Of a stretch of 64,000 nt of DNA, positions 4,831-64,000 are shown one piece after another (the stretch's first letter is position 1; every line of letters begins with the position of its first letter). The stretch covers positions 66,501-130,500 of the forward strand of contig JAQTUZ010000003.1 in NCBI GenBank assembly GCA_028707065.1, read 5' to 3'. This stretch comes from Patescibacteria group bacterium. Lineage in GTDB: Bacteria > Patescibacteriota > Patescibacteriia > Patescibacteriales > WJLG01. Both the position numbers and the translations under genes were made by a program. Below the pieces are notes generated by a model. That model made no database searches and had not been told where the DNA came from. It saw nothing but the letters and a program-made list of their open reading frames with translations.

Positions 4831-4881
4831 AACACACCCCGTCCCGCCGAGGCGGCGGTCCACCCCTCTCGAGAGGGGAAT
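4831..4881. repeat. GC-rich palindromic element, family A, intergenic copy
   Basis: aacacaccccgtcccgccgaggcggcggtccacccctctcgagaggggaat is nearly the reverse complement of 59369-59419. It ends 3 nt from the histidine kinase stop codon. Confidence 0.85.
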
Positions 4882-11614: not shown

Positions 11615-11692
11615 GTTTTTTTACCCCGTCCGGTCCGTAGACCGGCGGTGGTCCTTTTTTACCCCGTCCCGCAAAGCGGGCGGGGGTTCCTC
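11615..11692. repeat. two tandem GC-rich hairpin units (TTTTTTACCCCGTCC...) abutting the rpsB start codon
   Basis: tttttttaccccgtccggtccgtagaccggcggtggtcc followed by ttttttaccccgtcccgcaaagcgggcgggggttcc. Related to family A cores. Confidence 0.75.
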
Positions 11693-11926
11693 TATCCTAA
11701 CGATTTTACTTATTTCGGCTAAAAATAAGCAAGGTTTCCCTTAAGCATTTAGGATATGAGAGATTTATGAATAAATACATTATCGGCGCTCGCTCGGGAA
11801 TGATCTCACCAGAGGCGGATCATTTCGCTCGCTTGCTTGATAAACAAAACGGAAACGCCATAAATATGGCTTTTCCTTAACATTTAGCAGTTTACTACGG
11901 ATTTTAGTCAATGTCAAACATTGTCC

Positions 11927-12612: not shown

Positions 12613-12727
12613 CCCACCCCCCAACTTCGCTCCGCGGCGGAGCTTCGTTGGGCAAGCTGTCTTTTTTAAGATGAGCCACCCTTGCCCTACCGAAGCTTTA
12701 GCGTAGGCGGGCCTCCCGAGGAGAGGA
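12613..12727. repeat. GC-rich composite palindromic element (family A, long form), intergenic copy
   Basis: cccaccccccaacttcgctccgcggcggagcttcgttgggcaag...gagccacccttgccctaccgaagctttagcgtaggcgggcctc aligns with the reverse complement of the dus insertion at 50061-50177. Confidence 0.8.
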
Positions 12728-13890: not shown

Positions 13891-14060
13891 CCTGAGCGCC
13901 TCGCGAAGGATCTATTTTGCAAGAACTCTGAATCTTACTGAATAAGATTTCTTTGCAAAAAATCAACTATAGTATTTCTAAATTTTTATCTTCATTGTTC
14001 AACTTCCCGAAAAATAGATCCTTCGTCGTCAGCCGAGGCGGCTTTCTCCTCAGGATGACA
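13885..14060. mobile_element. MITE-like element with TGTCATCCTGAG...GAAGGATCTATTTT terminal inverted repeats (176 bp)
   Basis: The left arm 13885-13918 is tgtcatcctgagcgcctcgcgaaggatctatttt. The right arm 14011-14060 is aaaatagatccttcgtcgtcagccgaggcggctttctcctcaggatgaca. The core is AT-rich. A second copy lies at 53324-53525. No ORF, so non-autonomous if mobile. Confidence 0.65.
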
Positions 14061-18585: not shown

Positions 18586-19031
18586 CAGTAATCTCAGGGC
18601 AAGCTATAAGCCGGATTCTGTCTGACCTCGCACCGAAGTGCAGGGTGATACAGCCATTAATCTGGTCGGGCTGTTGCCAGCCGACTCAAGCGAGCCACGT
18701 TCCTTCAAATCTTGCGATTTGAGTTTGCTCTTGCTTCAGATGGGGTTTACCACGCATTCCTGTCGCCAGGAAGCGAATCGGGTAGCCGATATTGATTAGG
18801 ATATCCTCATAATCAACATCTTCACCCCGAAACTTTTCACGTTTTACCAATGCGCCTCGCGGAGCACCGGCTAGTATTGTCTCTGTGGCACTTTCCGTGG
18901 AATTACTCCCCGTGGACGTTATCCACCATCATTTTTTGTTCCGCAAAACGCGGAGCAAGAAGTCCGGACTTTCCTCCCCTCTCTGGCAAAAACCAAAAAA
19001 GAGCGGCTGTCCGCTTACCCTGATATTACTG
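18586..19031 (-). ncRNA. rnpB: RNase P RNA (bacterial type A)
   Basis: The minus strand contains GAGGAAAGTCCGGAC (reverse complement of 18961-18976) and ACAGAATCCGGCTTA (reverse complement of 18607-18621). The ends CAGTAATATCAGGGTAAGC and GCTTGCCCTGAGATTACTG pair as a 19-bp P1. Confidence 0.9.
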
Positions 19032-19416: not shown

Positions 19417-20584
19417 TTATAGCAATCTTTTTCATTAATTCCGAATAAAATTCTAAATTATTAAGCGAGGCCAAACGGGCGCCGAGCGGGTCGTTAATTT
19501 TGAAAAGATGGTGGATATAAGCTTTGGTGTGATCACGCAATTCGGAAATCCTGCTCGCCGGGTTGATCGGTGAAAAATCGGTCGCAAAACGGGAGTTGCC
19601 GATATTAAAAGTTCGATATTTAATGTCATTGCGAGCGCCTCGCGAAGCAATCCCGCTTTTACTTTTACCCGCGGGATTGCTTCGTCGCTGACGCTCCTCG
19701 CAATGACAAAAGAGTTTACCATGCCTCCCCTCGCGGGTGGGGATGACGCAGTCGAAAATGTCCCAGCCCATTTTGTAACAGCGGACAATATCTTCCGGCA
19801 AACCGACACCCAAGGCGAATTTTATTTTATTTTTAGGGATCAGCTCGGCAGTAAACTTTAAAACTTCTCCCAAAAATTTTCCTTCGCGGTCGACATGCCG
19901 CGCGCCAAAACCATAGCCGTCGAAATCGTGCTTAACCAATTCTTTAGTGCAGCGCTCGCGCAAATCAAGTTCGACGCCGCCCTGAATTACTCCAAAGATC
20001 AGCGGCCGCTTAGCGCGAGATATTTTTCTTTGCTTGATTTGTTTAAGATATTCTTTTTTACAGCGCGCGGCCCATTTGATCGTCCGCTCGACCGCCTTGG
20101 CAATATCAGCCCGGCTATATTCATTTGGCGGGCAATCGTCCAGACAAACCATCATATCCACACCCAGATCGAATTGAATCTGGATCGCTTTTTCCGGAGT
20201 GATCTCGTGCAATGAGCCGTCAGACGGCGAGCGGAAGATCGCACCTTGATCGGTAATTTTCCCCATCTTAGGATTTTTATGAATCAAGGAAAAAACCTGA
20301 TACCCGCCGGAATCAGATAAGATCGGTCCATCCCAACCTATAAATTCATGAATTCCGCCCTTGCCTCGCCGAAGTCCCGCGCCAGCGGGACGAAGGCGGG
20401 CGGCCTTTTTGATGATTTTCATTCCCGGCTCAAGATAAAGATGTAAAGTATTTACCACCAGCGCCTCGATCCCCGCCCCGGCGACTTCTTCGGTCGATAA
20501 AAATTTAACCAGCCCTCTAGTGGCATCAGGCATAAAGAAAGGTACACGCAACGGCCCATGGTTTGTGATAATACCTTTTTTCAT
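19412..20584 (-). CDS. tgt: queuine/archaeosine tRNA-ribosyltransferase family protein (Tgt-like) with two inserted elements
   Basis: 390 aa. FFMPDAT, NTLHLY, LSDSGGYQVFSL, FGVIQGG, GYGFG, LGVGLPEDI and WDIFDCVIPTREGRHG. The CxCxxC zinc motif expected before KAYIHHL is absent. Confidence 0.85.
   Translation of the reverse strand: MKKGIITNHGPLRVPFFMPDATRGLVKFLSTEEVAGAGIEALVVNTLHLYLEPGMKIIKKAARLRPAGAGLRRGKGGIHEFIGWDGPILSDSGGYQVFSLIHKNPKMGKITDQGAIFRSPSDGSLHEITPEKAIQIQFDLGVDMMVCLDDCPPNEYSRADIAKAVERTIKWAARCKKEYLKQIKQRKISRAKRPLIFGVIQGGVELDLRERCTKELVKHDFDGYGFGARHVDREGKFLGEVLKFTAELIPKNKIKFALGVGLPEDIVRCYKMGWDIFDCVIPTREGRHGKLFCHCEERQRRSNPAGKSKSGIASRGARNDIKYRTFNIGNSRFATDFSPINPASRISELRDHTKAYIHHLFKINDPLGARLASLNNLEFYSELMKKIAIK
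19624..19708. repeat. TGTCATTGCGAG...CTCGCAATGACA palindrome in frame inside tgt
   Basis: Encodes CHCEERQRRSNPAGKSKSGIASRGARNDI between FDCVIPTREGRHGKLF and YRTFNIG. A sister copy is intergenic at 4324-4425. Confidence 0.8.
20355..20403. repeat. GC-rich palindrome in frame inside tgt
   Basis: ccgcccttgcctcgccgaagtcccgcgccagcgggacgaaggcgggcgg encodes ARLRPAGAGLRRGKG just before GIHEFIGWDGPILSDSGG. Confidence 0.7.
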
Positions 20585-33639: not shown

Positions 33640-33644
33640 AAAAA

Positions 33645-33830
33645 TATAACGCGAATACTACAAATTATACGCGAATACAGCGAACCATTTTTAATTCCCC
33701 TCTTGCTTGCCCCGCAAAGCGAAGCGATGCGTGGGGGAGGGGTGGCCCGCCCCGGGCGGGACGGGGTGTGTTATTAGTTTCGCAGAGTTCGTGGTATTAG
33801 CGTAAAATTCGTTGTATTCGTGTTATATAA
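33645..33830. repeat. composite element: family C arms enclosing a family A GC-rich core (33694-33772)
   Basis: tataacgcgaatactacaaattatacgcgaatacagcgaacc...[attcccctcttgc...gacggggtgtgtt]...agtttcgcagagttcgtggtattagcgtaaaattcgttgtattcgtgttatata. Same architecture as 59322-59474. Confidence 0.85.
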
Positions 33831-33881: not shown

Positions 33882-33894
33882 ATTTTTAAAATGC

Positions 33895-33983
33895 AATACT
33901 AATAAATACGAATACATACTAATATGACGAATAATTTTTTAGCACGCATTCGTCATATTAGTATGTATTCGCAGATTAGTATT
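33895..33983. repeat. AT-rich palindrome (AATACTAAT...ATTAGTATT)
   Basis: aatactaataaatacgaatacatactaatatgacgaat pairs with attcgtcatattagtatgtattcgcagattagtatt. The right end overlaps the stop codon at 33982. Confidence 0.85.
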
Positions 33984-34554
33984 ACATCTTCAACAAATAA
34001 AATAGTGGCAATAAAATCGCCAAGACTAACGAACCCCATTCGAAGATCGCCCACCACCAGGGCACGCCATAAGTATCCTGGCGCAGGGAAAAATAATCGC
34101 GCGCGAACCAGTCGTCAACTTCGTATTTACGGATGTGATGATCGCGATCTTTATTATCCTTAAATACCATGAGAATTTTTCCGCCATAAAAAAGTTTGAA
34201 AACTTTCTGCGAAAAAGGCAAAAATAATTTTACGCCCCAGCCGATCCCGAACAGATCTAAAAGCGGATGAGTCAAGGCCGCGACGCTGATCAATAAAGAA
34301 ATTTTCCAGCCGCCGATCAGCCAGGTCAGCAGAAAAATTATCAGCGGCAATAAAAGCGAGTGGGAGAGATTGTCCCGATGCAGATGAAAATATTTCGAAC
34401 GGTAGTTTAATTTTTTGTTGAGAAAATAACTCAAAATATCCGGGGAAAACCCCCAAAAAGCGCCAACGATCAAAAAAAGCGGCGTAATGTCAAAACCGAG
34501 CGCCTGGCCCAGAAATAAAAAAATTAATTCTCCGGCAATTAAGTGCTCAAACAT
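33982..34554 (-). CDS. polytopic membrane protein, possibly membrane-bound metal-dependent hydrolase (YdjM/DUF457-like)
   Basis: 190 aa, multiple TM helices, His-rich loops HLHRDNLSHS and THPLLDLFG. The family assignment is tentative. Confidence 0.5.
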   Translation of the reverse strand: MFEHLIAGELIFLFLGQALGFDITPLFLIVGAFWGFSPDILSYFLNKKLNYRSKYFHLHRDNLSHSLLLPLIIFLLTWLIGGWKISLLISVAALTHPLLDLFGIGWGVKLFLPFSQKVFKLFYGGKILMVFKDNKDRDHHIRKYEVDDWFARDYFSLRQDTYGVPWWWAIFEWGSLVLAILLPLFYLLKM

Positions 34555-40263: not shown

Positions 40264-40277
40264 ATTTATTTTACAAG

Positions 40278-40348
40278 CTCGGGAGCTTGGATTCGAACCA
40301 AGATTATCGCGTCCAGAGCGCGACGTCTTACCTTTGGACGACTCCCGA
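40278..40348 (-). tRNA. tRNA-Gln (anticodon CUG)
   Basis: Hand-folded cloverleaf. Acceptor TCGGGAG/CTCCCGA, D arm GTC-CAAAGGTAA-GAC, anticodon arm TCGCG-CTCTGGA-CGCGA, T arm CTTGG-TTCGAAT-CCAAG. No encoded CCA. Confidence 0.9.
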
Positions 40349-42973: not shown

Positions 42974-44041
42974 CTATTTACTCTTAATAACATTATCTAC
43001 CGCTCCCCAGGCGCTGTCGCCGGCGATCGGAACGAGCAAGACAACCTTGTCGCCCTGAATGCCTTTGTAATAAGTGATGCTCGCCGTGATGACGCGGAAC
43101 TTTTTATGTTCAGCCTTAACCAGATAATTCCCGTTGGCGTCTTTTTCCAGTTTGCCGATCAAGCGTTTTCTTTCCACCGGCTTGGTTTGTTTATAAATAA
43201 AAGTGCCGCGGTCCGTAATCGTCAATTTTAGCATATCGCCTTCCACTAATTTTGATTTGGAAGCGTAGTTGGCCGGGACGCTGTATTCTTTGCCGTCCGG
43301 ACCGATCATATTTTCGCCGTTAAAAACCCCTTCGATAACTTTGCCGCCTTCTTCTTCGTCAGCGATCAAGCCGTCGCTTATTTCACCAATACTGATGCGC
43401 TCTTCATCGCCATCATCAAGCAAACCGCCGAATAATGAAACCAAATTGACGGAACTTTTTTGAATATTTTCCAAAAGCTGTTTGGCTAAAATAATTTTTG
43501 ATTTGGAAACGATAACGCTGTCTTCACTGACATATTCTCCGTCGTCTCCATCGGAATCCTCTTCCAAATCTTCATCTTCATCCTCGCCCTCGTCTTCGGT
43601 CAGATCGCTTTCTTCAACTTCATCCTCGTCCGCCGTAGCTTTAGCGAAGGCGGGCTCGTCCGCCGTAGCCTTGGCGAAGGCGGATTCATCAGCTTCCATT
43701 TCTTCTTCCGCCTCATCTTCCTCCGCCTGCTCGTCGCTTTCCTCCTCATCGGCAATCAAAGGATTAACAGCGGCAGGAGCAAAGATCGGCGGCGATACTT
43801 TCAAATCATCCTCTTCATCCAAATCAAAATCCTCGTCCTCGTCCACCGTAGCTTTAGCGAAGGTGGGCTCGTCCGCCACAACCTCATCGGCGGAAACGGG
43901 CTCGTCCGCTTCTTCGTCTAAATCTTCTTCCAAATTTTCTTCAGCCTCGTTTAAAATTTCATCATTGTCGGTAAGGTCATCAGACCCTAAACCGGCATTA
44001 AAATTAGAAATTGGCATATTTTTGTTTTTATTTTCACCCAA
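42974..44041 (-). CDS. acidic repeat protein with conserved C-terminal beta-rich domain (355 aa)
   Basis: The N-terminal 190 aa or so are D/E-rich with three (P/S)(T/A)FAKAT(A/V)DE units. The C-terminal 150 aa are non-repetitive. No family recognised. Confidence 0.6.
   Translation of the reverse strand: MGENKNKNMPISNFNAGLGSDDLTDNDEILNEAEENLEEDLDEEADEPVSADEVVADEPTFAKATVDEDEDFDLDEEDDLKVSPPIFAPAAVNPLIADEEESDEQAEEDEAEEEMEADESAFAKATADEPAFAKATADEDEVEESDLTEDEGEDEDEDLEEDSDGDDGEYVSEDSVIVSKSKIILAKQLLENIQKSSVNLVSLFGGLLDDGDEERISIGEISDGLIADEEEGGKVIEGVFNGENMIGPDGKEYSVPANYASKSKLVEGDMLKLTITDRGTFIYKQTKPVERKRLIGKLEKDANGNYLVKAEHKKFRVITASITYYKGIQGDKVVLLVPIAGDSAWGAVDNVIKSK
43628..43870. repeat. three copies of a 30-nt GC-rich unit GTCCGCCGTAGC[TC]TT[AG]GCGAAGG[CT]GG[GA][CT]TC inside the acidic-protein gene
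   Basis: Units lie at 43628-43657, 43658-43687 and 43841-43870. Each encodes xFAKATxDE on the minus strand. A related core is in the intergenic element at 12690-12715. Confidence 0.8.
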
Positions 44042-49880: not shown

Positions 49881-50945
49881 TTATTTCAATAACTTTTTAA
49901 TATCCGCTAATGTTTCAACTTTAACGAATTCCTGACGCATTTCGGCCGCACCCGGCATTCCCTTTACATACCAGCACAAATGCTTGCGCATTTCAAGTAT
50001 CCCCCGCCTGCCCTTGAACTTTTCCATCAGTTTGGCATGCTCCAGCGCAATTTTAAAAATATTCCCCTCTAGAGAGGCCCGTCTCGCCAAGGCTTCGCCG
50101 AGGCGGAGGTGGCTCGCACCGCGCGAGGCGGGCCTTGCCCAGCGTAGCTCCGCCTCGGAGCGAAGTTGGGGTGTGTTACGCTCACTTTTACGAAAAACAT
50201 TTTTTATTTGCGCAAAAATTTGCGGACGCCCGCACGCTCCCTGGCCGATTCCGATTCCATCCGCACCAGTTTTTTTGAGCATTATTTCAGCGTCTTCTAA
50301 ATTATTTATCCCGCCATTAGCCAGTACGATACCTTTGAATTTTTTCTTAACTCGATTGATAATTCCATAATCAACTGGCCCGGCAAATCCCTGCGCCAAA
50401 GTCCGGCCATGAACCATGATCGCGGCGATCGGCAAATCTTTCATCTTATCGATAAATTCCAAAGCGGATATTTTTCCGGCATGGGCGCGGATCTTCACTG
50501 AGACTGGCAATTTTGTATTAGCCAGAACCGCCTCAATGACGCGCCGCGACTGATTCAAGTCCTGAAATAATTTCGCGCCAGAACAAGACTTGATTATTTT
50601 CATCACCGGACAGCCGAAATTTATATCGATCCCGTCCGGCTTGATTTTCTTCTCGATTATTTTCACCGCCTTGATAAAATGCTCAGGATTGTTGCCGAAA
50701 AGCTGAACCACGAATTTCGCCCCGCCATTTTTTCTATACACATCTAAAAGCCCGCTCGTTCTCTTGCTGTCATAGAACAAGCCGGCCGCCGAGATCATTT
50801 CGCTATAAACCACATCGGCGCCATACTTGCCGCACAGATACCGGAAAGCCGCGTCGGTAATCCCCGCCATCGGCGCCAGCGCCAATATAGGCCTGCCCTG
50901 AGCGGAGCCGAAGGGTTTTTTCAATTTTTCCCAAAAATTATTCAT
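49881..50945 (-). CDS. tRNA-dihydrouridine synthase (Dus family) carrying a 117-nt in-frame element
   Basis: LALAPMAGITDAAFR, NFGCPV, the KIR motif, and HGRTLAQGFAGPVDY. The track start at 51053 is a TTG that reads through the upstream terminator. The ATG at 50945 is preferred. Confidence 0.85.
   Translation of the reverse strand: MNNFWEKLKKPFGSAQGRPILALAPMAGITDAAFRYLCGKYGADVVYSEMISAAGLFYDSKRTSGLLDVYRKNGGAKFVVQLFGNNPEHFIKAVKIIEKKIKPDGIDINFGCPVMKIIKSCSGAKLFQDLNQSRRVIEAVLANTKLPVSVKIRAHAGKISALEFIDKMKDLPIAAIMVHGRTLAQGFAGPVDYGIINRVKKKFKGIVLANGGINNLEDAEIMLKKTGADGIGIGQGACGRPQIFAQIKNVFRKSERNTPQLRSEAELRWARPASRGASHLRLGEALARRASLEGNIFKIALEHAKLMEKFKGRRGILEMRKHLCWYVKGMPGAAEMRQEFVKVETLADIKKLLK
50061..50177. 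repeat. family A long GC-rich palindromic element in frame inside dus
   Basis: attcccctctagagaggcccgtctcgcc...cggagcgaagttggggtgtgtt encodes NTPQLRSEAELRWARPASRGASHLRLGEALARRASLEGN on the minus strand. Confidence 0.85.
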
Positions 50946-50970
50946 GAATTGATTATAACAAAGTAATTCA

Positions 50971-51050
50971 AAAATAAAAGAGCCGAGAACGATTTGTGAT
51001 CGTCCTCGGCTCATTATGTTTTGCGGCAATCGCCTGGTTAGCGAAGCCGG
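50971..51050 (-). repeat. conserved 3' module (last codons plus terminator), copy 1
   Basis: About 85 percent identical to 51903-51982. Contains the hairpin gagccgaggacg-atcacaaa-tcgttctcggctc followed by TTTTATTTTT (minus sense). Confidence 0.85.
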
Positions 51051-51799
51051 CAAGAATTCGCTCTCTTTAACACTGCTCCATTCGACAAGCGTATTAGAAA
51101 GAACCCGTTAGTAGCACGGCCGGAATTTATAATTCGTCCTGATAAATCAACCAGACAAGCCCTGGAAATTATTCCCGATGACCTAGCCTGCGGTCTGGCG
51201 ATTACTGCAACCGTGGCTCGATTAATGTCTGATAAGGAAATTATTTGCAGATAAGCTACCTTGCCCAAATTACTGACGCACTCCACTCTGACCAGCGCAC
51301 CGTCAACCATTTCCCCCGGCAGCGCTTGATAAACATTAACGCTTACGTCTGAACTCACGAACTCGTGATAGCTCAATCGTCTGATGGTGTCGTCTTGGCC
51401 GCTGGCAAATAAATATATGCCAATTCCGACCCGCACCACAATTATTCCATAGGCATTTACCGAACTGTCGAAAATCGACGTATAGATCAAACTCTTCTCG
51501 ACCACCAAGTACTTGTTTATTTGAGTGGGAATGGCCAGCCAACCGGCAAAGCTTTGCACCGTATACCAGTTATTCATAATCGAATTGCTCAAGCTGCCAA
51601 TGGCTGATTGTCGCCCGCGCCAATACAGATCATCGGTCCAAATCACATGATTACAGGCCGAACCGTCATTTCTCACCACGACAAAACTCGAATCGCGGCT
51701 GATAGTATCGTTGGCGCAAGAAGGCCCATGGGGATGCTGAGCAAAAGATATGGCCGCCAACAACAACAAAAACCCGCAACTGCCAATCATTTTTTTCAT
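51038..51799 (-). CDS. secreted protein with C-terminal beta-tail (253 aa from the ATG at 51799)
   Basis: GGGAGA ribosome-binding site, signal peptide MKKMIGSCGFLLLLAAISFAQ, and C-terminus LVDLSGRIINSGRATNGFFLIRLSNGAVLKR. The track start at 51883 overlaps the predicted promoter. Confidence 0.6.
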   Translation of the reverse strand: MKKMIGSCGFLLLLAAISFAQHPHGPSCANDTISRDSSFVVVRNDGSACNHVIWTDDLYWRGRQSAIGSLSNSIMNNWYTVQSFAGWLAIPTQINKYLVVEKSLIYTSIFDSSVNAYGIIVVRVGIGIYLFASGQDDTIRRLSYHEFVSSDVSVNVYQALPGEMVDGALVRVECVSNLGKVAYLQIISLSDINRATVAVIARPQARSSGIISRACLVDLSGRIINSGRATNGFFLIRLSNGAVLKRANSCRLR

Positions 51800-51869
51800 A
51801 CTTCTTCTCCCTTTGGTAAATGTGTTTGTTATTATTAAAAAACAATCATATTTGCAATGTCTGTGACAG

Positions 51870-51898
51870 ACAATAGCATACATTTACCGATTTGTCAA
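51870..51898 (-). promoter_or_regulatory. promoter TTGACA-17-TATTGT (cassette 1)
   Basis: Reverse complement of 51893-51898 is TTGACA and of 51870-51875 is TATTGT. It shares ATGCTATTGT with 53250-53259. Confidence 0.6.
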
Positions 51899-51902
51899 TG
51901 TC

Positions 51903-51982
51903 AAAATAAAAAAGAGCCGGGGACGAATGCAATCGTCCTCGGCTCATATTGTTTTGCGGCAATCGCTTGGTTAGCGATGCCG
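51903..51982 (-). repeat. conserved 3' module, copy 2
   Basis: See 50971-51050. Hairpin at 51914-51945. Confidence 0.85.
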
Positions 51983-53179
51983 ATTAAAGATCGTGGTTTT
52001 AGTCGCTCCGTCCGACATCTGAATAATCCTCAGTCCGGATGTGGCATAATTTGCGCCAGTGATTTTCCTACCCCTTATGTCGAAAGCGGCATTTTGGGCG
52101 GAATATTTCCGAATGGGCGCGCTTTTTAAAACCGGTTTTGAAATTGCCGTCGGATTTATCGGACCTCCAAGTTCACAGATTTCGACCGTATACTTCGCGG
52201 CCGGATCCGGAATTTCTACCGTCCATTGTCCGTTGGCGTCGGCGAAGGAATCTTTCTGCCAAAGCTTACCTCTCTGGAAAGAAAAAACATTAATCGCTGC
52301 GTTCGAACTAGTCTTAATCGTCAGCTTATCGCCAACAATCTCCGACGTATAACGAGCCGATGAAGCCCTTTTGAACAAGGAGACATTCCCGACCGTTTCT
52401 GACATCGGTTTTCCAAAACCAAGATCTTTGACGGCAGGGTCGATGGGGTTATTTAGCCAGACATTTAGAAGTGTCGGGCCAACAACTTTAGTCGGCATTG
52501 ATTGTCCCGGAAGAATCATTTTTCCGTAATTCTTTCCGGACTGTACGTATCGCTCCCTATTACCGAGAACTCCATGTCCGATAAATCCGATATAGCTCAC
52601 CAGGTCAGCGGAGGTAACAAGGCCATCGCCGTTTATATCACCCCTGATCCCGTCTAACTTTCTGAAAGTAAATCCCCTGCTTATTTCTTCTCCTTGCCCG
52701 GGGAATTGCTCTCCGCTAGAAATCGCGGCATCCATAACGACATATCCGACTTTATTGTCAGCAATATCATTTAATCGGATGCCAGAAAAATAAACAAGCA
52801 TGCAACGAGTCATATAATATGAGCTCGTTTTTGCGAGAGCCATAATATCCCAGATGGGCGTAGAATCGTTAATGAAATAGGAGACCTTGTCAGAGTCATC
52901 CGACCAATAATAATCACAAACCCTGAGATTTGTTTGACTGAAAAAACCGTTTATGTCCCAACCGGTCGACGTGGTTTTTATGCCCCACATTTTCCCGTTG
53001 GCAGCACTGCCGCTGAACGGGCCGTTATTTGATACGTGCAATATTCCATCGAAACGCTCTCCGGGCAAGAGATAATAATTGCTTGCCGTGTCATAAAAGT
53101 AAAACCGAAAATCAGGCTGAGCGATCGAAGAGACCGACGACAATAAGCAGACGAACAGCGAAAAAATGAGCTTTTTCAT
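51971..53179 (-). CDS. secreted protein with dockerin-like repeat and C-terminal beta-tail (402 aa)
   Basis: Signal peptide MKKLIFSLFVCLLSSVSSIAQ, GDINGDGLVTSADLVSYIGFI (dockerin/EF-hand-like), and C-terminus FDIRGRKITGANYATSGLRIIQMSDGATKTTIF. Confidence 0.65.
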   Translation of the reverse strand: MKKLIFSLFVCLLSSVSSIAQPDFRFYFYDTASNYYLLPGERFDGILHVSNNGPFSGSAANGKMWGIKTTSTGWDINGFFSQTNLRVCDYYWSDDSDKVSYFINDSTPIWDIMALAKTSSYYMTRCMLVYFSGIRLNDIADNKVGYVVMDAAISSGEQFPGQGEEISRGFTFRKLDGIRGDINGDGLVTSADLVSYIGFIGHGVLGNRERYVQSGKNYGKMILPGQSMPTKVVGPTLLNVWLNNPIDPAVKDLGFGKPMSETVGNVSLFKRASSARYTSEIVGDKLTIKTSSNAAINVFSFQRGKLWQKDSFADANGQWTVEIPDPAAKYTVEICELGGPINPTAISKPVLKSAPIRKYSAQNAAFDIRGRKITGANYATSGLRIIQMSDGATKTTIFNRHR

Positions 53180-53249
53180 AAAAACCCCTTTCTGTTTGTT
53201 AGGAGATATTGAATTGTAAACAGCAAACTGCTTTCAGAATTATGTTAAA

Positions 53250-53278
53250 ACAATAGCATAGTTCTCACTTTTTGTCAA
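53250..53278 (-). promoter_or_regulatory. promoter TTGACA-17-TATTGT (cassette 2)
   Basis: Reverse complement of 53273-53278 is TTGACA and of 53250-53255 is TATTGT. Confidence 0.6.
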
Positions 53279-53323
53279 TCAAGCCAAACAAAAAACGCCA
53301 ACTTTGGCGACTTTTACCCTCTT

Positions 53324-53525
53324 TGTCATCCTGCCTGCCCGCCTTCTTGTCCGCCTCGGGCGGAGGGAGGGAGCGCCGTGCGAAGGATCTATTTTCCGAT
53401 AAATCTTTAAAATGTTATAAAGAATTAGAACGATGATATTGGATTAACTTTATCGATAAAAAATTTTACCTCGATAATTTCTGCTTTACACAAAATAGAT
53501 CCCTCGTCAGGGACTCGGGATGACA
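53324..53525. mobile_element. MITE-like element, second copy (202 bp)
   Basis: The left arm is tgtcatcctgcctgcccgcc...gtgcgaaggatctatttt. The right arm is aaaatagatccctcgtcagggactcgggatgaca. The core is AT-rich, with the same termini as 13885-14060. Confidence 0.65.
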
Positions 53526-53575
53526 AAAAAGAGAAAGCCGGGATTATGGAAAAATCGGTTTTTATTTCTAACTTC

Positions 53576-55240
53576 TTACTTCTTATTTATCTTCATCCCC
53601 TCCTTCGTGTCCTCAATAGAAAATCCTTTGGCTTCAATTTCCGCACGCAAACGATCTGACTCCGGCCAATTTTTTTCCGCGCGGGCTTTAGCGCGCGCCT
53701 CGACCAGAACGCCAACTTCGGCGGGAACTGTTTCCTGATCCTGGCCCCGGCAGAGTCTCTCGGAGAGGACTCTGCCGAAATTTAAGCCGAGCACGCGATC
53801 AAAATCTAAAATCGTTGCCAACTTATCCCCTGACAACAAATTTGATTTTAAAACTTCCTGCAGAACCGATAAAGCGGCCGGAGTATTAAAATCATCATTA
53901 ACAGCGGTTACGAATTTTTTTCTATATTCCGCGCTTAACACACCCCCCACTTCGTTCTGCTCCGCAGAACTTCGCGGGGCAAGCCGTCCGCGCGGCGCGT
54001 CCACCCCTCTTGATAGAGGGGAATTTTTTAGCACGCTAATCTGAGAGTATAAATGTTCCAGTCCGTTTTGGGCGGCCTGCAAAGCTTCCCAGGTAAAATT
54101 CTGCGGAGAGCGATAATTGGCGGAAAGAAAATAATATCTTAAAGCTAAGGGTGAAAAACCTTTCTCTTTTACTTCGGCCAAGGTAAAACCAGTGCCTTGA
54201 GACTTGGCCATTTTTTCTTCGTTCACTAAAAGATGTTCGTTGTGCAGCCAATAATTTACATATTTAACGCCGTTGGCCGCTTCGGATTGAGCGATCTCGT
54301 TGGTGTGATGAACCGGAATATGCTCGATGCCGCCCATATGGACGTCCAAGGTCGGACCAAGATATTTTTTACTCATCGCCGAACACTCGATATGCCAGCC
54401 GGGAAAACCTTCACCCGATTTCACCAAAGGCGATTTGAACGGAGATTTCCAAAACTGCAAAGCATTGGCGTGAACGCCGGCGCGAAAAAACCACAAGGCA
54501 AAATCTCGCGGATGTTTTTTAGCCGGATCGGTTACGTCGCCCGAACCCTCCCCGATGATATTTTTTTCCAGATTTTGCCGCGAGAGTTCTGTGTAATTGG
54601 GAAATTTGGAAACATCAAAATAAATCGCGAGCGGCGTGGCATAAGCAAAGCCTTTTTTTAATAAAATTTTAACCATCGCCTGCATCTCTTTAATGTGCTT
54701 GGTGGCGCGCGGTTTTTTCCACGGTTCTTTAATATTCAAATCAACCGCGGCTTGTTCATATTCCTGAATGTATTTTTTTGCAACATCTAATGGAGATTTT
54801 CGAAAATCTTCATCAATAACGTATCCATTTTTATCTTTAACTAAGTTTTCGTAACCACAAAACGGACATACATGAACATTGTTCGAAAACGTTCCGGTCG
54901 CAAAAGCTTTTTTCGTTACGGCTATTCCCGAATTAAAAATCTTTTGACATTTTTTACACTTAACACCTAATCCCGTAGTTGTCATCTTGTCCTCGCCTTC
55001 ATCCTCATCCGAAGTCATATGTCCGACATCGGTATAATTTTTGACATACTTAACTTTATAGCCGTCATATTCAAAAACCCGGCGGATAATATCACCCAAG
55101 ACCGCGGCGCGAAGATTGCCCAGATGCTGGGTCCAATAAACCGTCGGCCCGCATTGATAAAACCCAACTACGCCCTTTTTCAAAGGCTTGAATTCCTCCT
55201 TTTTCTTAGTGAGCGTGTTATACAAATATATTTTCTCCAT
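53576..55240 (-). CDS. cysS: cysteinyl-tRNA synthetase with two insertions
   Basis: 554 aa. [16 protein letters not shown] (HIGH region), [30 protein letters not shown] (KMSKS), and DDFNTPAAL. Confidence 0.93.
53937..54023. repeat. family A GC-rich palindromic element in frame inside cysS (opposite orientation to the dus copy)
   Basis: aacacaccccccacttcgttctgctccgcagaacttcgcggggcaagccgtccgcgcggcgcgtccacccctcttgatagaggggaat encodes [30 protein letters not shown]. Confidence 0.85.
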
Positions 55241-57437: not shown

Positions 57438-59321
57438 TTATTCATTTTTATCGCGCTTTGGCAAAATTGTCAAGGGTTTTTTGATAATTTTCACGGTTGA
57501 CGTCGCGACTGCGGAAAAATTTTCCAATTTGTACAAAGTAAAAATATCATCGGTCGATTTTATTTTCTGCAAAACCAAACCAGCTTGTTTTAATTTGCCA
57601 TCATTCAAATATTTAAAATCCTTCTCCGGAAAAGTAAAATTGAAATAATAAACCGGGATATATTTGGCTAATTTTTGATAAATAATTAACATGGCCGGAT
57701 CGGTAAGATTATTAACAACGACCTTGCGCTCGGGGAAAAATATCTTATCATGATAGCGGGTGATGATCACGGCCGACGGTTCGGTAAGCCTGAGCACCTG
57801 GTCATATTCCGATTTCAAAACTTGGTTATTGGAATCGACATAGAGCAGGCCCTCTTTGGAACCGCTGACCAAAAAATTGGCGGAAAAGAAAAAAATAAAA
57901 ATTATGATGACCGCCTGCGTGGCGCCGATGCTAAATGTCCGGGACGGCCATTGGAGCAGAAAAAAATTCTTAAACTTATTGGAACTGATCTTAACCGCGA
58001 CTTCACTATTTTCAGTATCGCGCGCAAAGATCGCCCAGGACAAACGAGAGATAAAAAAAGCCGCGAACGGCATCGCCCCTAAATAGATTGGCAGCCAATA
58101 ACGGGTGTAAGAATTGCCGATAGTGATTTCGTTAAGATTGGGATTATCATTGAATACCCAGCTGCCGTAATATAAGACCAAAATCGCGCTGGCAATAAAG
58201 TAAGCGAAGAAATACGCCCAATATTTTTTCTTCCATTTCCAAACCCGGGTCATGAACAGGATCAGTCCCAGAAAAGCCGGCCAAAAGAGCAAGGGAAACA
58301 TTTTCGGAAAATAATTTTTAAAATTCTGCCCGGCCTGATTATAATTCAAGCCGAAATAAAAAACAGTATTTTTGATTTTATTCAACGGTTCAAGAATGTA
58401 GGAAAATTGTCCCTTGACGACGGTCTTGGTCAAAACAACGCCCTCGGCCGCGACCGTGGTTATTGAGCGATTTATCTCCACGTAGCCGCCGTTGCTATAG
58501 CCGCCGTAGAGGATTTCGTTCCAAAAAAGCACCGGCACGAAAGGCAAGGCAACGAAACAAACAATGATGATCAATTTCAATATCCCGATCTTTTTTAAAT
58601 TGAACAGCCAAAGGACAATAAGCGCCGGTAGCAGCCAAATGGCCTCGGAAGTTCTGGTGATCAGGGCGCCGCCGACGAACAATCCGCCTAAAGCGGCCAG
58701 GAATAAATTTAACCAATCCATCTGCCAAAACCGCCAAGAAAAAAATTTATTTTTTCTCGGCGCGCGCGTCGCGGCTAAAACAATAAAATACAGGCTGATG
58801 ACCAATAAAGAAACAAATAAAACATTATGAAACAGGCTGTGCACCGAATAAAAATAAAATACCGGAAAACTTAAAAGTAAAAGCGAGCTTAGGAAGGCCA
58901 CCCGCGGCGTAAAAATCTTCTTGATCAAAAGATAATAAAAGAAAAAAGCCAGCGCCGCGAAAAACGGGGTCAAGAATGGGATGACTTTGACTGAAATTAA
59001 CTTGGCAATCGTACCGTAGATCAGAATGACGCCCAAAAAACTCACGGGTTTGAGCAGGCCATTGTCGCTGCGGAAGCTTCTCGGCTGCATGATCTCAGAA
59101 ACGAACGGATTATATTTTTCGTAAATAGTCAGCTGGCCGGTTTGGGCGTAAAGTTTGGCAAAAATATAATTGGCTGTTTCATCAGGCGAACCCCATTTGA
59201 CAAAACCATCGCGCTGCGTAAAAGCGATAAAACCGCAAGCGGCCGCAAAAAATACTGCTGCCAAGAGAACAACGCAGATTTCCCGCCAAAATCTTCTAAT
59301 AAAACTTATTATTTTGGTCAT
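57438..59321 (-). CDS. GT39/ArnT-like polytopic membrane glycosyltransferase (627 aa)
   Basis: More than 10 TM segments. The first loop motif GSPDETANYIFAKLY resembles the DE-containing loop of the PMT/ArnT family. C-terminal soluble domain. Confidence 0.7.
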   Translation of the reverse strand: MTKIISFIRRFWREICVVLLAAVFFAAACGFIAFTQRDGFVKWGSPDETANYIFAKLYAQTGQLTIYEKYNPFVSEIMQPRSFRSDNGLLKPVSFLGVILIYGTIAKLISVKVIPFLTPFFAALAFFFYYLLIKKIFTPRVAFLSSLLLLSFPVFYFYSVHSLFHNVLFVSLLVISLYFIVLAATRAPRKNKFFSWRFWQMDWLNLFLAALGGLFVGGALITRTSEAIWLLPALIVLWLFNLKKIGILKLIIIVCFVALPFVPVLFWNEILYGGYSNGGYVEINRSITTVAAEGVVLTKTVVKGQFSYILEPLNKIKNTVFYFGLNYNQAGQNFKNYFPKMFPLLFWPAFLGLILFMTRVWKWKKKYWAYFFAYFIASAILVLYYGSWVFNDNPNLNEITIGNSYTRYWLPIYLGAMPFAAFFISRLSWAIFARDTENSEVAVKISSNKFKNFFLLQWPSRTFSIGATQAVIIIFIFFFSANFLVSGSKEGLLYVDSNNQVLKSEYDQVLRLTEPSAVIITRYHDKIFFPERKVVVNNLTDPAMLIIYQKLAKYIPVYYFNFTFPEKDFKYLNDGKLKQAGLVLQKIKSTDDIFTLYKLENFSAVATSTVKIIKKPLTILPKRDKNE

Positions 59322-59474
59322 ATAATACGAATACTACGAATTGTACGCGAATACTACAAACCATTGTTATTCCCCTCTCGAGAGGGGTGGCAGGCCGCCT
59401 CGGCCTGACGGGGTGTGTTATTCGATTCGTGGAGTTCGCGGTATTCGCGAATAATTCGTAGTATTCGCATTATA
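59322..59474. repeat. composite element: family C arms enclosing a family A core (59369-59419)
   Basis: tataatacgaatactacgaattgtacgcgaatactacaaacc...[attcccctctcgagaggggtggcaggccgcctcggcctgacggggtgtgtt]...attcgattcgtggagttcgcggtattcgcgaataattcgtagtattcgcattata. It abuts the start codon at 59321. Confidence 0.9.
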
Positions 59475-59541
59475 GGTTATCAAAAAATGCGGATTTTAGC
59501 AAGAAAAAAGCCCATGACCGTAATCACAGGCTTAAGAAGAT

Positions 59542-61987: not shown

Positions 61988-64000
61988 ATGAAAATAAATT
62001 TTAAAAAACAATTATTTTATTTGGCGCTCGCCGCGATTTGCCTGGTTTCCGTTTCTGGCGCGGTGATTTATTATTTTTACGCCTTGAATTGGCTGGGGAT
62101 TTCGCTAGTTCTGATCTTGTCCGGCTTGGGTGTTTGGTATTTTGCCCGCCTGCTTTTTGTGCAAAAAAAAGAGACGTTCGGCACTGATGATATAGCGGAA
62201 AAATTCATTATCAAAAAAACTGAAATTGACTGGAAAAAAATCACCATAACTTCCGCTTGGCTCGTTCCTTATTTTATTTTTTTACTTTTTACTTTTTACT
62301 TTTTACTTAAGGTTCGGACCGACGCAGCCCTGACTTCCCCCTGGCAGGTTGTTTCAGTAAAATTTTTCATCTTTTATATTTTGGCGACCGCCTATTTGCT
62401 CTGGTTGATCATTAGAAATTCCAAATTTACGCTCTGGCTGATTATGGCCCATTATTTTTTATCTTTTTCTGCCTTATGGATTGTGTTTAAAATCGGCTAT
62501 GGCTATGATCCTTTCATCCACCAAGCCACGGCTGATTTAATCGATAAGCAAGGCGCAGTCTTTCCCAAGACGCCATATTATCTTGGCCAATACGCGCTAA
62601 TCTTATTCGCCCATAAATTATTTTTCCTCCCGATCGTCTGGGCCGACAAACTTTTAGTCCCCCTTCTCGCCGCTTTAGCTTTACCGCCCACAATTTATCT
62701 TTTCTTAAAAAAACGCTGTTCAAACTTATCATTTGTAATTTGTAATTTGTCATTATTAATTTTATTGATTCTCCCCTTCTCCGTCTTCACCTTAACCGTT
62801 CCGCAAAACTTGGCCTATCTATTTTTATTGCTTTCGATCTTTTTTTCGCTCTTCGCGCGCGAACGCATTGAAATAATTTTAAGTTTTCTTTTAGCCGGCG
62901 CGGCCTTAGCGACTCATCCGATCGCCGGCATTCCGGCTTTACTTTTTGCTTTAGCTGCGCTCATCGCCCGCCAGCCGGGCAACCGGATTTTCTTTACGCC
63001 AAAAAATAACAGCGAGGACGGCGAAATTTGCCTGGACAAACCCCGCGAAGGAATCTTGCGCATTAAAACTATAAAAATCTCGGAAAAAAAACATTGGCAT
63101 TTTTCTTTCCGAACAATCAGCGATTTTTTTCTAGGCAAAAATATTTTCTATGTTCTGATCGCCTTGCTGACGGCGGTGGTTCTGCCGCTACTCTTTTATT
63201 TATCCGGCAAAAATTCCACTGGTTCAACCGGCGGAGAATCAACGGCAGCCGGATTTATTATGCCGGGCATCGCCTTTCCGCGGCAAGAAAATATTTTCCT
63301 AAATTTTATTTATTTTTTCCTAAGCAATGAATGGCTGGTTTTGATCGTCTTAGCCTTGGCGGCCGGTTACGCGATCTATCGCTATCGTGATAAATTTCCG
63401 GAATTAGTTTTATTAGGCAGCATAGCCATTAGCTTATTAGTCGCTTATTTTATAACCAAGCAATTAAATTTTAACTTCCTTATCAGTTACGAGCGCAATG
63501 ACTACGCGCAAAGAATTTTATTCGCGGCTTTTATTTTTCTCATTCCGGTTTTGGCAATTTTAGCGGGCAAACTTATTGAGCTAATCCTTTCAGCACGGCC
63601 ATTGCTTAAATATTCTTGGCTGGCATTGTTGGTAATTCTTATCGCTGTTTCGCTTTATGGCTCTTATCCGCGGCTCGACCGATATTTTAATTCTCGCGGA
63701 TTCTCGGTCGGCGCCGATGATCTTGCCGCGGTGAATTGGATCGCGCAAGATGCCGGAAATACGCCGTATGTCGTTTTAGCCGATCAGCAAGTTTCCGTCG
63801 GCGCGCTCTGGACTTTCGGCTTTTCTCATTATTACAAATCCCCCCTCCTTCCTAAGGATGGGGTGTCCTCCCCTCCTTCCCAAGGAGGGGTTGGGGGTGG
63901 TTCTGCGGGAGGTGGTTCTGAAATCTATTTTTACCCGATTCCGACCGGCGGGCCGCTTTACCAAATTTACTTGAATATGGTTTATCAAAAACCCGACCGC
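61988..64000 (+). CDS. large polytopic membrane protein (more than 671 aa, 3' end runs off the window)
   Basis: The ATG at 61988 opens a frame with no stop to base 64000 (exactly 671 codons, so not in the ORF track). My translation begins MKINFKKQLFYLALAAICLVSVSGAVIYYF and contains at least 12 hydrophobic segments. Confidence 0.7.
   Translation, partial: MKINFKKQLFYLALAAICLVSVSGAVIYYFYALNWLGISLVLILSGLGVWYFARLLFVQKKETFGTDDIAEKFIIKKTEIDWKKITITSAWLVPYFIFLLFTFYFLLKVRTDAALTSPWQVVSVKFFIFYILATAYLLWLIIRNSKFTLWLIMAHYFLSFSALWIVFKIGYGYDPFIHQATADLIDKQGAVFPKTPYYLGQYALILFAHKLFFLPIVWADKLLVPLLAALALPPTIYLFLKKRCSNLSFVICNLSLLILLILPFSVFTLTVPQNLAYLFLLLSIFFSLFARERIEIILSFLLAGAALATHPIAGIPALLFALAALIARQPGNRIFFTPKNNSEDGEICLDKPREGILRIKTIKISEKKHWHFSFRTISDFFLGKNIFYVLIALLTAVVLPLLFYLSGKNSTGSTGGESTAAGFIMPGIAFPRQENIFLNFIYFFLSNEWLVLIVLALAAGYAIYRYRDKFPELVLLGSIAISLLVAYFITKQLNFNFLISYERNDYAQRILFAAFIFLIPVLAILAGKLIELILSARPLLKYSWLALLVILIAVSLYGSYPRLDRYFNSRGFSVGADDLAAVNWIAQDAGNTPYVVLADQQVSVGALWTFGFSHYYKSPLLPKDGVSSPPSQGGVGGGSAGGGSEIYFYPIPTGGPLYQIYLNMVYQKPDR
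63839..63920. repeat. CCCCTCC/GGAGGGG hairpin element in frame inside the membrane protein gene
   Basis: tcccccctccttcctaaggatggggtgtcctcccctccttcccaaggaggggttgggggtggttctgcgggaggtggttct encodes SPLLPKDGVSSPPSQGGVGGGSAGGGS. Related to 14977-15047. Confidence 0.75.

Follow-up and report, generated by a model that had tools for sequence, protein, structure and literature searches.

The stretch of DNA analysed here (the window) comprises 64,000 nucleotides of contig JAQTUZ010000003.1, from a metagenome-assembled genome (MAG) of a Patescibacteria group bacterium, a member of the candidate phyla radiation (CPR). It has a GC content of approximately 44%, and 39 of its 46 long open reading frames (ORFs) lie on the minus strand. 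Among its genes are dus and cysS, which encode two conserved enzymes, a tRNA-dihydrouridine synthase and a cysteine--tRNA ligase. Both carry, in frame, a copy of a short GC-rich palindromic repeat, hereafter family A, which also stands between genes elsewhere in the window (Table 1).

When both strands of the window were scanned, the 5' decamer ATTCCCCTCT and the 3' decamer GGGGTGTGTT were each found exactly five times, whereas about 0.1 occurrences of a random 10-mer are expected by chance over both strands (128 kb). Every exact 5' decamer is paired with an exact 3' decamer 41-107 nt further on the same strand (5/5). The unit is ordered as ATT, CCCCTCT-loop-AGAGGGG (hairpin 1), TGG, a covarying hairpin 2 and GACGGGGTGTGTT, its end being also written (GA)CGGGGTGTGTT, and the minimal unit measures 43-51 nt. 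Hairpin 1 has a fixed sequence and forms, in the 51-nt form, the perfect palindrome CCCCTCT-CG-AGAGGGG. Hairpin 2 is variable in sequence and always self-complementary, and in the two 51-nt copies of the window it differs by compensatory changes. TGG (CCA on the opposite strand) separates the hairpins in 5/5 window copies. All of the window copies stand singly, and the one at 4831-4881 starts 4 nt past the stop codon of a histidine-kinase ORF (4885-6015, minus strand). Overall, the window holds 23 perfect GC-rich hairpins with a stem of at least 7 bp, compared with 3-8 in five Markov shuffles. Taking family A together with its close variant A2 (see below), four of the eight loci are coding and four are intergenic, although coding sequence makes up at least 84% of the window; the intergenic loci are thus enriched about threefold (4/8 in at most 16% of the DNA). 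Such an under-representation of genic copies fits the loss of most genic insertions.

An earlier note on this DNA had claimed that a single element family is found in intergenic DNA and also in frame within genes, oppositely oriented in dus and cysS, and the exact termini common to five copies bear this out. Its host-frame translations of the dus and cysS copies agree exactly with the sequence. Its coordinates hold for the dus copy and the other exact copies, except that '33694-72' is to be read as 33694-33772 and that the cysS copy ends at 54024, not at 54023. The intergenic segment at 12613-12727, which it had also assigned to the family, does belong there, but as a degenerate composite when compared by eye.

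Two of the family-A copies, at 33694 and 59369, are bracketed by AT-rich imperfect palindromes built of (T)ACG(C)GAATAC-like units (33640-33830 and 59320-59480), and one palindrome of the same type stands alone at 33890-33990. We considered these (T)ACGCGAATAC palindromes as part of a larger composite with family A and rejected the idea, ATTCG[TC]G-like units being found after only 1/126 other copies (Nitrospinota, L064). They are a separate repeat family.

Table 1. Repeat copies in the 64-kb window and the two principal host genes (positions are those of the window)
Feature	Position	Strand	Context	Remarks
Family-A copy, minimal, 51 nt	4831-4881	-	intergenic	exact termini
Family-A copy, 79 nt	33694-33772	+	intergenic	exact termini; B-like block in hairpin-1 loop
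Family-A copy, 117 nt	50061-50177	+	inside dus	exact termini
Family-A copy, 88 nt	53937-54024	-	inside cysS	exact termini
Family-A copy, minimal, 51 nt	59369-59419	+	intergenic	exact termini
Degenerate composite A+B copy	12613-12727	-	intergenic	block order as in the dus copy (compared by eye)
dus (DusB-type tRNA-dihydrouridine synthase)	49881-51053	-	host gene	NCBIfam TIGR00737, 5.9e-75, two stretches
cysS (cysteine--tRNA ligase), 554 aa	53576-55240	-	host gene	TIGR00435, 3.5e-116; PDB homologues
Two tandem A2 units	14973-15047	-	in frame in GT4 glycosyltransferase ORF 13992-15350 (-)	read forward: NSPPFKGGGRGGQPPSFIRRGLGV
Two tandem A2-type units	63839-63920	+	in frame in membrane-protein ORF from 61979 to the window end (+)	SPLLPKDGVSSPPSQGGVGGGSAGGGS
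Family-B palindrome, CTTCG-hairpin-CTTCGGCGAGGCAAGG	20355-20403		in frame in tgt	14-residue gap vs Z. mobilis Tgt
Family-C double palindrome (GGAACGCAAAATCTTGCGTTCC twice)	13406-13463		in frame in mnmA	peptide RRNAKSCVPGNSNAKSRVPT; 18-residue gap vs solved MnmA
Family-D long palindrome, TGTCATTGCGAG...CTCGCAATGACA	19624-19708		in frame in tgt	Tgt alignment breaks 293/326
Three 30-nt units, E(P/S)(T/A)FAKAT(V/A)D	43628-43870		acidic-protein ORF 42974-44041 (-)	B-related motif GCTACGGCGGAC

The dus copy amounts to 39 codons, and the gene reads the reverse complement of the element, yielding the peptide NTPQLRSEAELRWARPASRGASHLRLGEALARRASLEGN (NTPQ...LEGN). Its core unit is distributed over 50061-50075, 50108-50128 and 50168-50177, and the intervening positions (50076-50107 and 50129-50167) are filled by nested blocks of the family-B type. 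The element corresponds to residues 256-294 of the 353-residue translation of 49881-50942; a database protein 100% identical to the window Dus, P0001 from a Patescibacteria group bacterium MAG, has a later start and 354 aa. Dus of T. maritima (PDB 1vhn) aligns to query residues 20-259 and 297-351, so that 37 query residues (260-296) stand against 5. Among 22 aligned CPR Dus proteins, the distant P0008, P0010, P0015, P0028, P0047, P0062, P0075 and P0082 have an empty site, and in the relative that encodes P0015 (L206) it is empty in the DNA itself (...AAAATTAAG|AATATTTTTAAAGTT). The structure predicted by AlphaFold2 (AF2) from the Dus alignment has a mean confidence score (pLDDT) of 85.6, and the sole stretch below 50, residues 257-290, is placed after the last helix of the barrel and before the C-terminal helical domain.

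A comparison with the DNA of relatives (L121, L202/L203, L204/L205, L206 and L207) indicates how the dus site has changed. In L202 it is occupied by a canonical 51-nt unit, AACACACCCCGT-CCTCGCGCGGCGCGAG-TCCACCCCTCTCAAGAGGGGAAT, which has its termini and hairpin 2 (CCTCGCGCGGTGCGAG; CTCGCGCGG(C/T)GCGAG as common to both) in common with the window copy, while the window copy has two blocks extra, and GCGGG where its L202 orthologue has GACGG. L121 keeps hairpin 2 as in the window, and its hairpin 1 has passed from CCCCTCT/AGAGGGG to CCCCTCC/GGAGGGG, a compensatory exchange of T-A for C-G. L204 and L207 have different, likewise self-complementary sequences in place of that hairpin 2. The peptides encoded at the site vary from one relative to another (HPSQEGN, HPSKEGN, TPPEEGI, HPSRGGD). 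Since the palindromes persist while the peptides differ, the constraint bears on the nucleic acid and not on the peptide. Orthologous in-frame copies are kept across relatives with approximately 70% protein identity. A metagenome scan with the Dus alignment was uninformative on empty and filled sites, the relatives among the matches listed being at most 52% identical.

The cysS gene reads its element forward (NSPL...GGVL), and although both host genes lie on the minus strand, the dus and cysS elements are oppositely oriented. The cysS copy consists of a 51-nt unit and a nested 37-nt family-B block (53947-53983). CysS of the window is 100% identical to the database protein P0121, and the CysS proteins of relatives measure 462-548 aa. 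An unexpanded unit occupies the same site in L202/P0122 and in P0123: that of L202 is a 43-nt unit with the hairpin-1 loop ATCA, as in the window, and P0123 encodes a 16-residue peptide that is the unexpanded form of the ...GGVL segment of the window. The site is empty in the relative L121/P0124 and in many other CPR sequences, and L204/P0133 has a different palindrome there. Against the window protein, solved CysRS structures show a gap of 19 residues (6ujd) or 8 residues (8qhp) at the element. In the AF2 prediction, CysS residues 411-430 have a pLDDT below 50 and lie between helices 384-405 and 437-448.

CysS of the window has other peculiarities. Residues 86-147 (approximately 54800-54985, minus strand) form a further insertion of about 62 residues, resembling a CxxC...CxxC zinc ribbon and of low AF2 confidence, which is shared only by P0122, P0125 and P0138 and is absent in the closer P0123 and P0124; in this patchy distribution it resembles a mobile insertion domain. 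In addition, coding palindromes with perfect 10-bp stems are found in the GT4 ORF at 14646-14675 and in the cysS ORF at 53748-53777 (CGTCGCAGTC...GACTGCGACG and CGGCAGAGTC...GACTCTGCCG), the cysS one coinciding with a small lineage-specific insertion, SERLCRGQ, and with low-pLDDT residues 495-504.

Repeats can mislead assemblers, and the window comes from a MAG, so that one might suspect mis-assembly, or else host genes that have decayed to pseudogenes. We regard this as extremely improbable: in independent assemblies from other samples (L202 JGI, L203 ENA, L204/L205, L207 Logan, L121 NCBI) orthologous copies stand at matching codon positions, and neither the dus nor the cysS ORF is truncated, every catalytic region aligning with solved enzymes. 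Another conceivable explanation is that the segments are never translated, being excised from the mRNA in an intron-like manner or bypassed by the ribosome. Some yeast mitochondria have GC-rich mobile bypass elements, and strong GC hairpins within a genome of 44% GC would suit such a role. However, every in-gene copy examined (14-39 codons) is in the host frame and free of stops, which would be needless if it were removed, and a unit of 43-51 nt has neither a ribozyme or intron match in Rfam nor conserved take-off and landing codons; excision or bypass is thus very improbable. At gathering thresholds, Rfam finds in the whole window an RNase P RNA (class A, 177 bits, 18591-19022, minus strand) and one tRNA, tRNA-Gln(CTG) (40277-40348, minus strand), and nothing else; these are the sole Rfam/ARAGORN matches. 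A permissive Rfam scan of one family-A unit returned only the look-alike Mahella-1, at 12.5 bits with a gathering score of 70.7, and no known RNA family was assigned. Integron attC sites, IS200/IS605 ends, group II intron domains and known ribozymes were likewise dropped, their defining motifs being absent.

The family-A unit is found in more than a dozen phyla, nearly unchanged, and is not lineage-specific. This became apparent when a single genome from each GTDB species was searched with the pattern ATTCCCCTCTN{2,6}AGAGGGGTGG, which yielded at least 120 loci; the TGG between the hairpins is imposed by the search pattern in this set. All names and counts from here to the end of the next paragraph are those among the matches listed. 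They include Verrucomicrobiales, Planctomycetia, Ignavibacteria/Kapaibacteria/Melioribacteraceae, Pedobacter/Mucilaginibacter/Flavobacterium, Nitrospinota, Aminicenantes, Zixibacteria, Cloacimonadota, Fibrobacteria, Pelosinus and other Bacillota, Desulfobacterales, Cysteiniphilum/Caedibacter, Paceibacteria and an archaeal MAG. Cultured carriers of the searched unit are Mucilaginibacter, Pedobacter, Flavobacterium and Cysteiniphilum. The motif (G/A)GGGTGT is reached within 120 nt in 126/135 matches, and of the remaining nine, four are cut by the end of the locus and four have a near-variant of the motif. GACG precedes GGGGTGT in 77/126 copies, that is in 77/104 with a hairpin 2, and in 4/5 window copies. 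There are 85 distinct hairpin-2 sequences, most of which fold as a single hairpin (median z = -3.2), with stems mostly of 3-7 bp, usually C-G first, and commonly with 3-nt loops of the GNA type. In two length-matched subsets, 92.5% and 95.6% of the cells are paired (slid controls, 10-58%), and covariation is scored at 0.494 vs 0.198 in the one and 0.844 vs 0.165 in the other, with 0/500 shuffles reaching the observed value.

As for their genomic setting, inverted pairs of units with the GGGGTGT ends face to face are the rule in Mucilaginibacter, Verrucomicrobiales and Pelosinus, and convergent spacers hold units more often than divergent ones (15 vs 7). Relative to the 3' end of the adjacent gene, 18 units are in the same orientation and 17 in the opposite one. 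Such a lack of orientation bias argues for an element acting at the level of DNA; an oriented role in RNA, as a 3'-UTR stabiliser or terminator, is not supported, for this reason and for want of a T-run. In-frame units also occur far from CPR hosts: in the Sua5 of a Fibrobacteria representative, between the YrdC and Sua5_C domains; within the HhH-GPD domain of an OGG from Bacillota; and twice in a 930-aa ORF of Kapaibacterium. In the latter (MAG locus L060, around residues 800-885), a segment of about 63 residues containing the family-A unit (KNTPSGKMPATPLQEGN) is tandemly duplicated, which suggests that genic units can be amplified by local duplication as well.

Conservation of this kind might also mean that the units are functional nucleic-acid elements selected by the host (as control sites for nucleases or recombination, or as DNA or RNA hairpins with an effect on supercoiling, on the stability of mRNA or on pauses in translation at domain boundaries) and that the in-gene copies are maintained for that purpose. 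Hairpin 1 of the dus site (CCACCCCTC...GAGGGGA) is indeed identical or compensatorily changed where the proteins are only about 70% identical and the peptide varies, hairpin 2 still pairs despite unrelated sequences, and the in-gene copies of Dus, CysS and Sua5 lie at domain boundaries. A precedent exists in Neisseria, where the NTS repeats are cut by the Ssn nuclease and modulate transformation (PMC11893778). However, the copies are patchy even in close relatives, cysS of L121 and dus of L206 being empty; the same loop is filled by different families; the units have no orientation bias relative to transcription; and the threefold enrichment of intergenic copies is what selection against genic insertions predicts. 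Gene conversion among copies or the needs of recognition by a nuclease would explain the conservation equally well. We consider a host-selected role unlikely.

A candidate for such a nuclease is found beside the units. Across the loci of the cross-phylum scan (at least 120), the sole recurrent neighbour protein is a two-member cluster, namely homologous ORFs of L018 (Melioribacteraceae) and L103 (Pelosinus), each lying between two units and each belonging to DUF559 (PF04480, E = 3.6e-29 and 5.4e-30). DUF559 matches a solved 'endonuclease-like protein' (PDB 3hrl, E = 1.1e-13) and has been grouped with Vsr and with a homing endonuclease inside the PD-(D/E)XK superfamily (PMC3424549), where it belongs to the Vsr clade. 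Homologues 62-85% identical occur across Parcubacteria, Francisella, Desulfuromonadales, Trichlorobacter, Oscillospiraceae and Aenigmarchaeota. At 6/6 loci examined (L018, L103, L215/216, L217, L218/219 and L220/221), units stand on both sides of the DUF559 gene, for example in Parcubacteria GW2011_GWC2_38_7 (L215/216), in the complete genome of Francisella frigiditurris (L217), which has a unit variant, and in a Desulfuromonadales MAG (L218/219), which has the A2 variant. The Francisella cassette reads ATTCCCCTTCAAGTGTTGAAGGGGTGG-ATTGCGAAGCAAG-ACGGGGTAGT, 15 nt, ATG...DUF559...ACTACCCCGTC-AGTCTAGCGACTG-CCACCCCTTCAACACTTGAAGGGGAAT. The gene encodes 120-135 aa and is bracketed at fixed distances by inverted or direct units, whose GGGGTGT end points to the gene in the inverted cases; the whole cassette, of about 0.45-0.6 kb, has inverted terminal units. 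Many DUF559 ORF calls in the database overrun into the flanks and so encode the element, with N-termini such as FPSERGVPERRGVL and C-termini such as TPRPAGTPLKEGN. Peptides of hairpin 1 are present in 36/53 N-terminal and 18/25 C-terminal extensions of DUF559, in contrast to 0/53 after shuffling and 0/120 in the core domain.

With the consensus unit, BLAST against phages and plasmids gave no meaningful match, and in IMG/VR the pattern lies on 7 of 2.9 million contigs, a rarity that gives no sign of a viral vehicle. An autonomous form carrying an ORF as cargo inside hairpin 2 was considered and rejected, as no long inserts were found and the nuclease gene sits between two units. Judged by titles and the openings of abstracts, the papers found to mention DUF559 contain nothing on repeats.

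It could still be that the units spread mainly by homologous recombination and gene conversion, or by hairpin-templated errors of replication, with DUF559 as a passenger in a repeat-rich hotspot. No clear target-site duplication or terminal inverted repeat was found for the solo units, as would suit this possibility. One and the same orthologous site has differing hairpin-1 variants and hairpin-2 sequences, consistent with conversion, and three A copies have B blocks at identical internal positions, so that composites may propagate as units; CGTC repeats, moreover, have been reported without a dedicated transposase (PMC3733652). Nevertheless, near-identical 10-nt motifs together with DUF559 proteins 62-85% identical across phyla can hardly be understood without co-transfer and specific recognition, and units at fixed distances on both sides at 6/6 loci reproduce the architecture of a REPtron or of NTS-ssnA-NTS. 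DUF559 as a mere passenger is thus quite improbable.

In their behaviour, the units recall several known systems. Palindromes located between genes and, in frame, in unrelated conserved genes are known as Rickettsia palindromic elements (RPEs; Ogata et al. 2000, cited from PMC10969869 and PMC3733652). The earlier note had predicted RPE-like behaviour, and the likeness has stood up: family A is intergenic and in frame in conserved genes, in either orientation, and encodes added peptides predicted to be compatible with the host fold. As it had supposed, the segments are extra sequence, the residues being absent from T. maritima Dus, from distant CPR Dus and from the CysS of L121/P0124. In the alignments, the gaps begin and end within a few residues of the element's edges, the host genes are intact and not pseudogenes, with in-frame copies persisting in relatives about 70% identical, and the structure models place both inserts in low-confidence loops between well-predicted domains or helices. 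Unlike RPE-1, of approximately 100-150 bp, the unit measures 43-51 nt, and the host is a free-standing CPR lineage and not Rickettsia. Family A also differs in being nearly unchanged across phyla and linked to DUF559. Its likeness to RPEs is one of behaviour and of the CGTC/CCA tags of RPE-4/6. The note's further remark that it knew of no such characterisation for this kind of genome stands insofar as our literature search found no report of in-frame palindromic repeats specific to CPR, nor any relevant match for the motifs and the element-encoded peptides; in-frame repeats outside Rickettsia are known, however (PMC3733652), and the family itself spans many phyla.

Repetitive extragenic palindromic (REP) sequences provide the second comparison. 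Di Nocera et al. (2013) distinguished GTAG- and CGTC-tagged REP superfamilies, described in-frame units in several bacteria outside Rickettsia, including units in tRNA synthetase and pseudouridine synthase genes, and placed RPE-4/RPE-6 and the neisserial dRS3 in the CGTC class (PMC3733652). On its reverse strand, family A reads ...CCCGTC-(hairpin 2)-CCA-CCCCTCT..AGAGGGGAAT. Like CGTC REPs, whose head may also be TGTC or CCTC, it has an unpaired CGTC head, a CCA tail and no adjoining tyrosine transposase. Head-to-head dimers, predominant in that class, are common for family A in other genomes, and the window copies are all single. Like dRS3 (ATTCCC-N8-GGGAAT), its hairpin 1 starts with ATTCCC. 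In contrast, its stem measures mostly 3-7 bp, with 3-nt loops common, where 8-9 bp and a loop of 4-5 nt are defined for the class, there is no A·T in the first two stem positions, and none of the four described CGTC families has its second, invariant hairpin and GGGGTGTGTT terminus. With REP/REPIN-RAYT systems in general, family A shares short GC-rich palindromes, often in inverted doublets, that bracket a single-copy nuclease or transposase gene, as well as the preference for convergent and co-directional spacers. It differs by lacking the GTAG head, and a Y1/HUH transposase was not seen near the units among the loci listed (at least 120). REP families are normally specific to a species or genus, whereas the family-A unit is conserved across phyla.

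The third comparison is with the NTS/dRS3-type hairpins (CGTCATTCCCGCG..GCGGGAATC) of Chenal et al. (2025), which flank small GIY-YIG nucleases of the Ssn family in many phyla, are cut as single-stranded DNA and, as NTS/SRM repeats, reach up to hundreds of copies (PMC11893778). Family A resembles them in that hairpin repeats stand on both sides of a small single-domain nuclease gene over a wide phylogenetic range, and in that the loop is free while the stem and an oriented flanking motif are conserved. Unlike Ssn, the putative partner of family A is DUF559, with a PD-(D/E)xK, Vsr-like fold instead of GIY-YIG (cd10448). The SRM pattern HGTCWYN(0-2)YYVSBRHN(0-5)WNVSBRGN(0-2)RNCYNB has 0 matches on both strands of the 64-kb window. 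More remote parallels are the MITEs (transposable elements of the miniature inverted-repeat type) with in-frame genic insertions, namely ERIC/RU elements and the MITEs of Anabaena (PMC10969869, PMC2759123), and the coding palindromes of Nematomorpha mitochondria (PMC6649704). Family A resembles all of these in consisting of structured repeats that can be read as protein and of GC-rich modules that nest. The mitochondrial GC clusters, small structured GC-rich repeats, offer the same likeness. Unlike MITEs and the mitochondrial cases, solo family-A units show no clear terminal inverted repeats or target-site duplications, reside on a bacterial chromosome and are much shorter. Because the stem-length and A/T rules fail, the SRM pattern is unmatched and the nuclease has another fold, we place family A, on its sequence features, outside any described family, as an element that would work like REP, RPE and NTS.

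Taking the evidence as a whole, we favour, with a probability of roughly 0.7, the explanation that the dus and cysS segments are short non-autonomous repeats of the REP/RPE type, whose spread is driven by DUF559. In an ancestor of this CPR lineage, one unit would have entered a permissive linker in each enzyme: in Dus the one that joins the TIM barrel to the C-terminal helical domain, and in CysS the one that joins two helices past the catalytic body. These insertions would have survived because the GC-rich unit added whole codons and had no stop in the frames used, and they were then passed on vertically; in the window genome, each was later enlarged by nested family-B insertion. The units are presumably transcribed and translated with the host gene, as the conservation of frame and the lack of stop codons over variants of 14-39 codons suggest, and the AF2 models point to their accommodation as disordered surface loops. 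The DUF559 nuclease, for its part, would recognise the hairpin-1 and terminal motifs, probably in a folded state such as single-stranded or cruciform DNA can take up, and drive or maintain the spread of solo units in trans, as in REP-RAYT and NTS/SRM-Ssn. What the sequences establish is the repeat family, its insertion into genes whose orthologues lack it, the orthology and vertical inheritance of the copies, their nested growth, the covariation of hairpin 2, the spread over phyla and the physical linkage to DUF559. The partnership itself is an association, and both its function and the role of DUF559 as the recognising and mobilising nuclease are proposed by analogy. GNA triloops form very stable DNA mini-hairpins, and their frequency in hairpin 2 is a weak hint at action on folded single-stranded or cruciform DNA.

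Several observations weigh against this explanation. No consistent target-site duplication was found at solo family-A units, whose flanks are only A/T-rich and whose two termini do not form an inverted-repeat pair. Neither a DUF559 nor a GIY-YIG gene is present in the 64-kb window, so that a partner in this genome is a presumed one. L018 and L103 were located via the element itself; the other four DUF559 loci were picked from a protein list. As regards translation, gene callers bias the protein database toward intact ORFs. Finally, the same Dus and CysS loops are occupied by different repeat families in different lineages; the loops are permissive or preferred insertion sites, and it could be site preference rather than tolerance that is at work.

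It is tempting to go further, and a wider scenario seems possible to us, although we offer it only tentatively. In that scenario, family-A units and DUF559 (PD-(D/E)xK/Vsr fold) would constitute a third class of small nuclease plus hairpin repeat, beside the HUH RAYT-REP and the GIY-YIG Ssn-NTS, spread horizontally through most bacterial phyla and archaea, with DUF559 as a nuclease specific, in structure and sequence, for ATTCCCCTCT-loop-AGAGGGGTGG. In reduced CPR genomes, solo units and at least three other palindrome families would have been repeatedly written into loops of core translation and tRNA-modification enzymes. If so, core enzymes of CPR genomes would receive a steady supply of new translated peptide segments.

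What is new here is the cross-phylum unit, the in-frame copies in Sua5 and OGG and the flanking of DUF559; in-frame behaviour itself had already been documented. The association with DUF559 points to a selfish element of nuclease plus repeat, apparently undescribed. Proteins of CPR/Patescibacteria are known for unexplained extra segments, and a measurable part of these may well be translated copies of identifiable hairpin repeats, which matters for annotation, alignment-based phylogeny and structure prediction in CPR lineages. The window contributes seven or more such insertions, borne by six genes, namely dus, cysS, tgt (with two), mnmA, the GT4 gene and the membrane-protein gene. The link with DUF559 offers a testable function for a large family of domains of unknown function, and this family may become, as the Ssn family did recently, a new source of nucleases that are specific for a site or a structure. 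A recognition module of about 30 nt that is near-identical across phyla is unusual for REP-type repeats, and the family could be used to study movement between and within genomes; its cultured carriers make the system tractable.

The remaining repeats of the window fall into several families. Variant A2, close to A, reads CCCCTCC-loop-GGAGGGG followed by GGGGTGGTT, also written GGGGTGGT(T). Family B (CTTCG-hairpin-CTTCG..GGGCAAG) is the source type of the blocks nested in A copies, and these blocks fill the same two internal positions in the dus copy and in the degenerate composite at 12613-12727. Family C has the pattern GGAACGCAA..TTGCGTTCC and encodes RNAKSCVPT in mnmA. By inspection, the acidic-protein units are probably related to family B. 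In the earlier note, such hairpins had been described as related elements in frame; the two in tgt and the one in mnmA are true insertions relative to solved homologues, but instead of one related family there are A2, B, C and D.

In L206 (18300-18900), a gene for a 135-aa GIY-YIG protein is flanked by inverted GTCATCCTGAG...GACGAAGGATC repeats. Between these and family D, only the head TGTCAT...GAG and the motif CGAAG...ATC are common, and the alignment is poor, with 57% mean column identity. As a tentative lead, an Ssn-like GIY-YIG nuclease might have family D as its partner repeat.

Among CPR orthologues of Dus and CysS, P0012, P0015, P0016, P0020, P0023, P0037, P0140, P0153 and P0202 have other palindrome-encoded peptides at other sites, such as NTPRSRGAATPEVSGSCNPLDRGEL, RNAKSCVPT, PSTPLSSASFRTGRTG, LPTGQAGR and TSSRPSPSKGEGE. 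Judging from these sequences, palindrome-encoded inserts are widespread in this CPR clade, with several loops apparently struck repeatedly.

Two observations concern the window at large. The cumulative GC skew drops monotonically over its length, which places it within one replichore. At 11621-11697, between genes, there is a tandem pair of plain CGTC-headed, REP-like units that lack hairpin 1 and have the form 'ACCCCGTC + short GC hairpin'.

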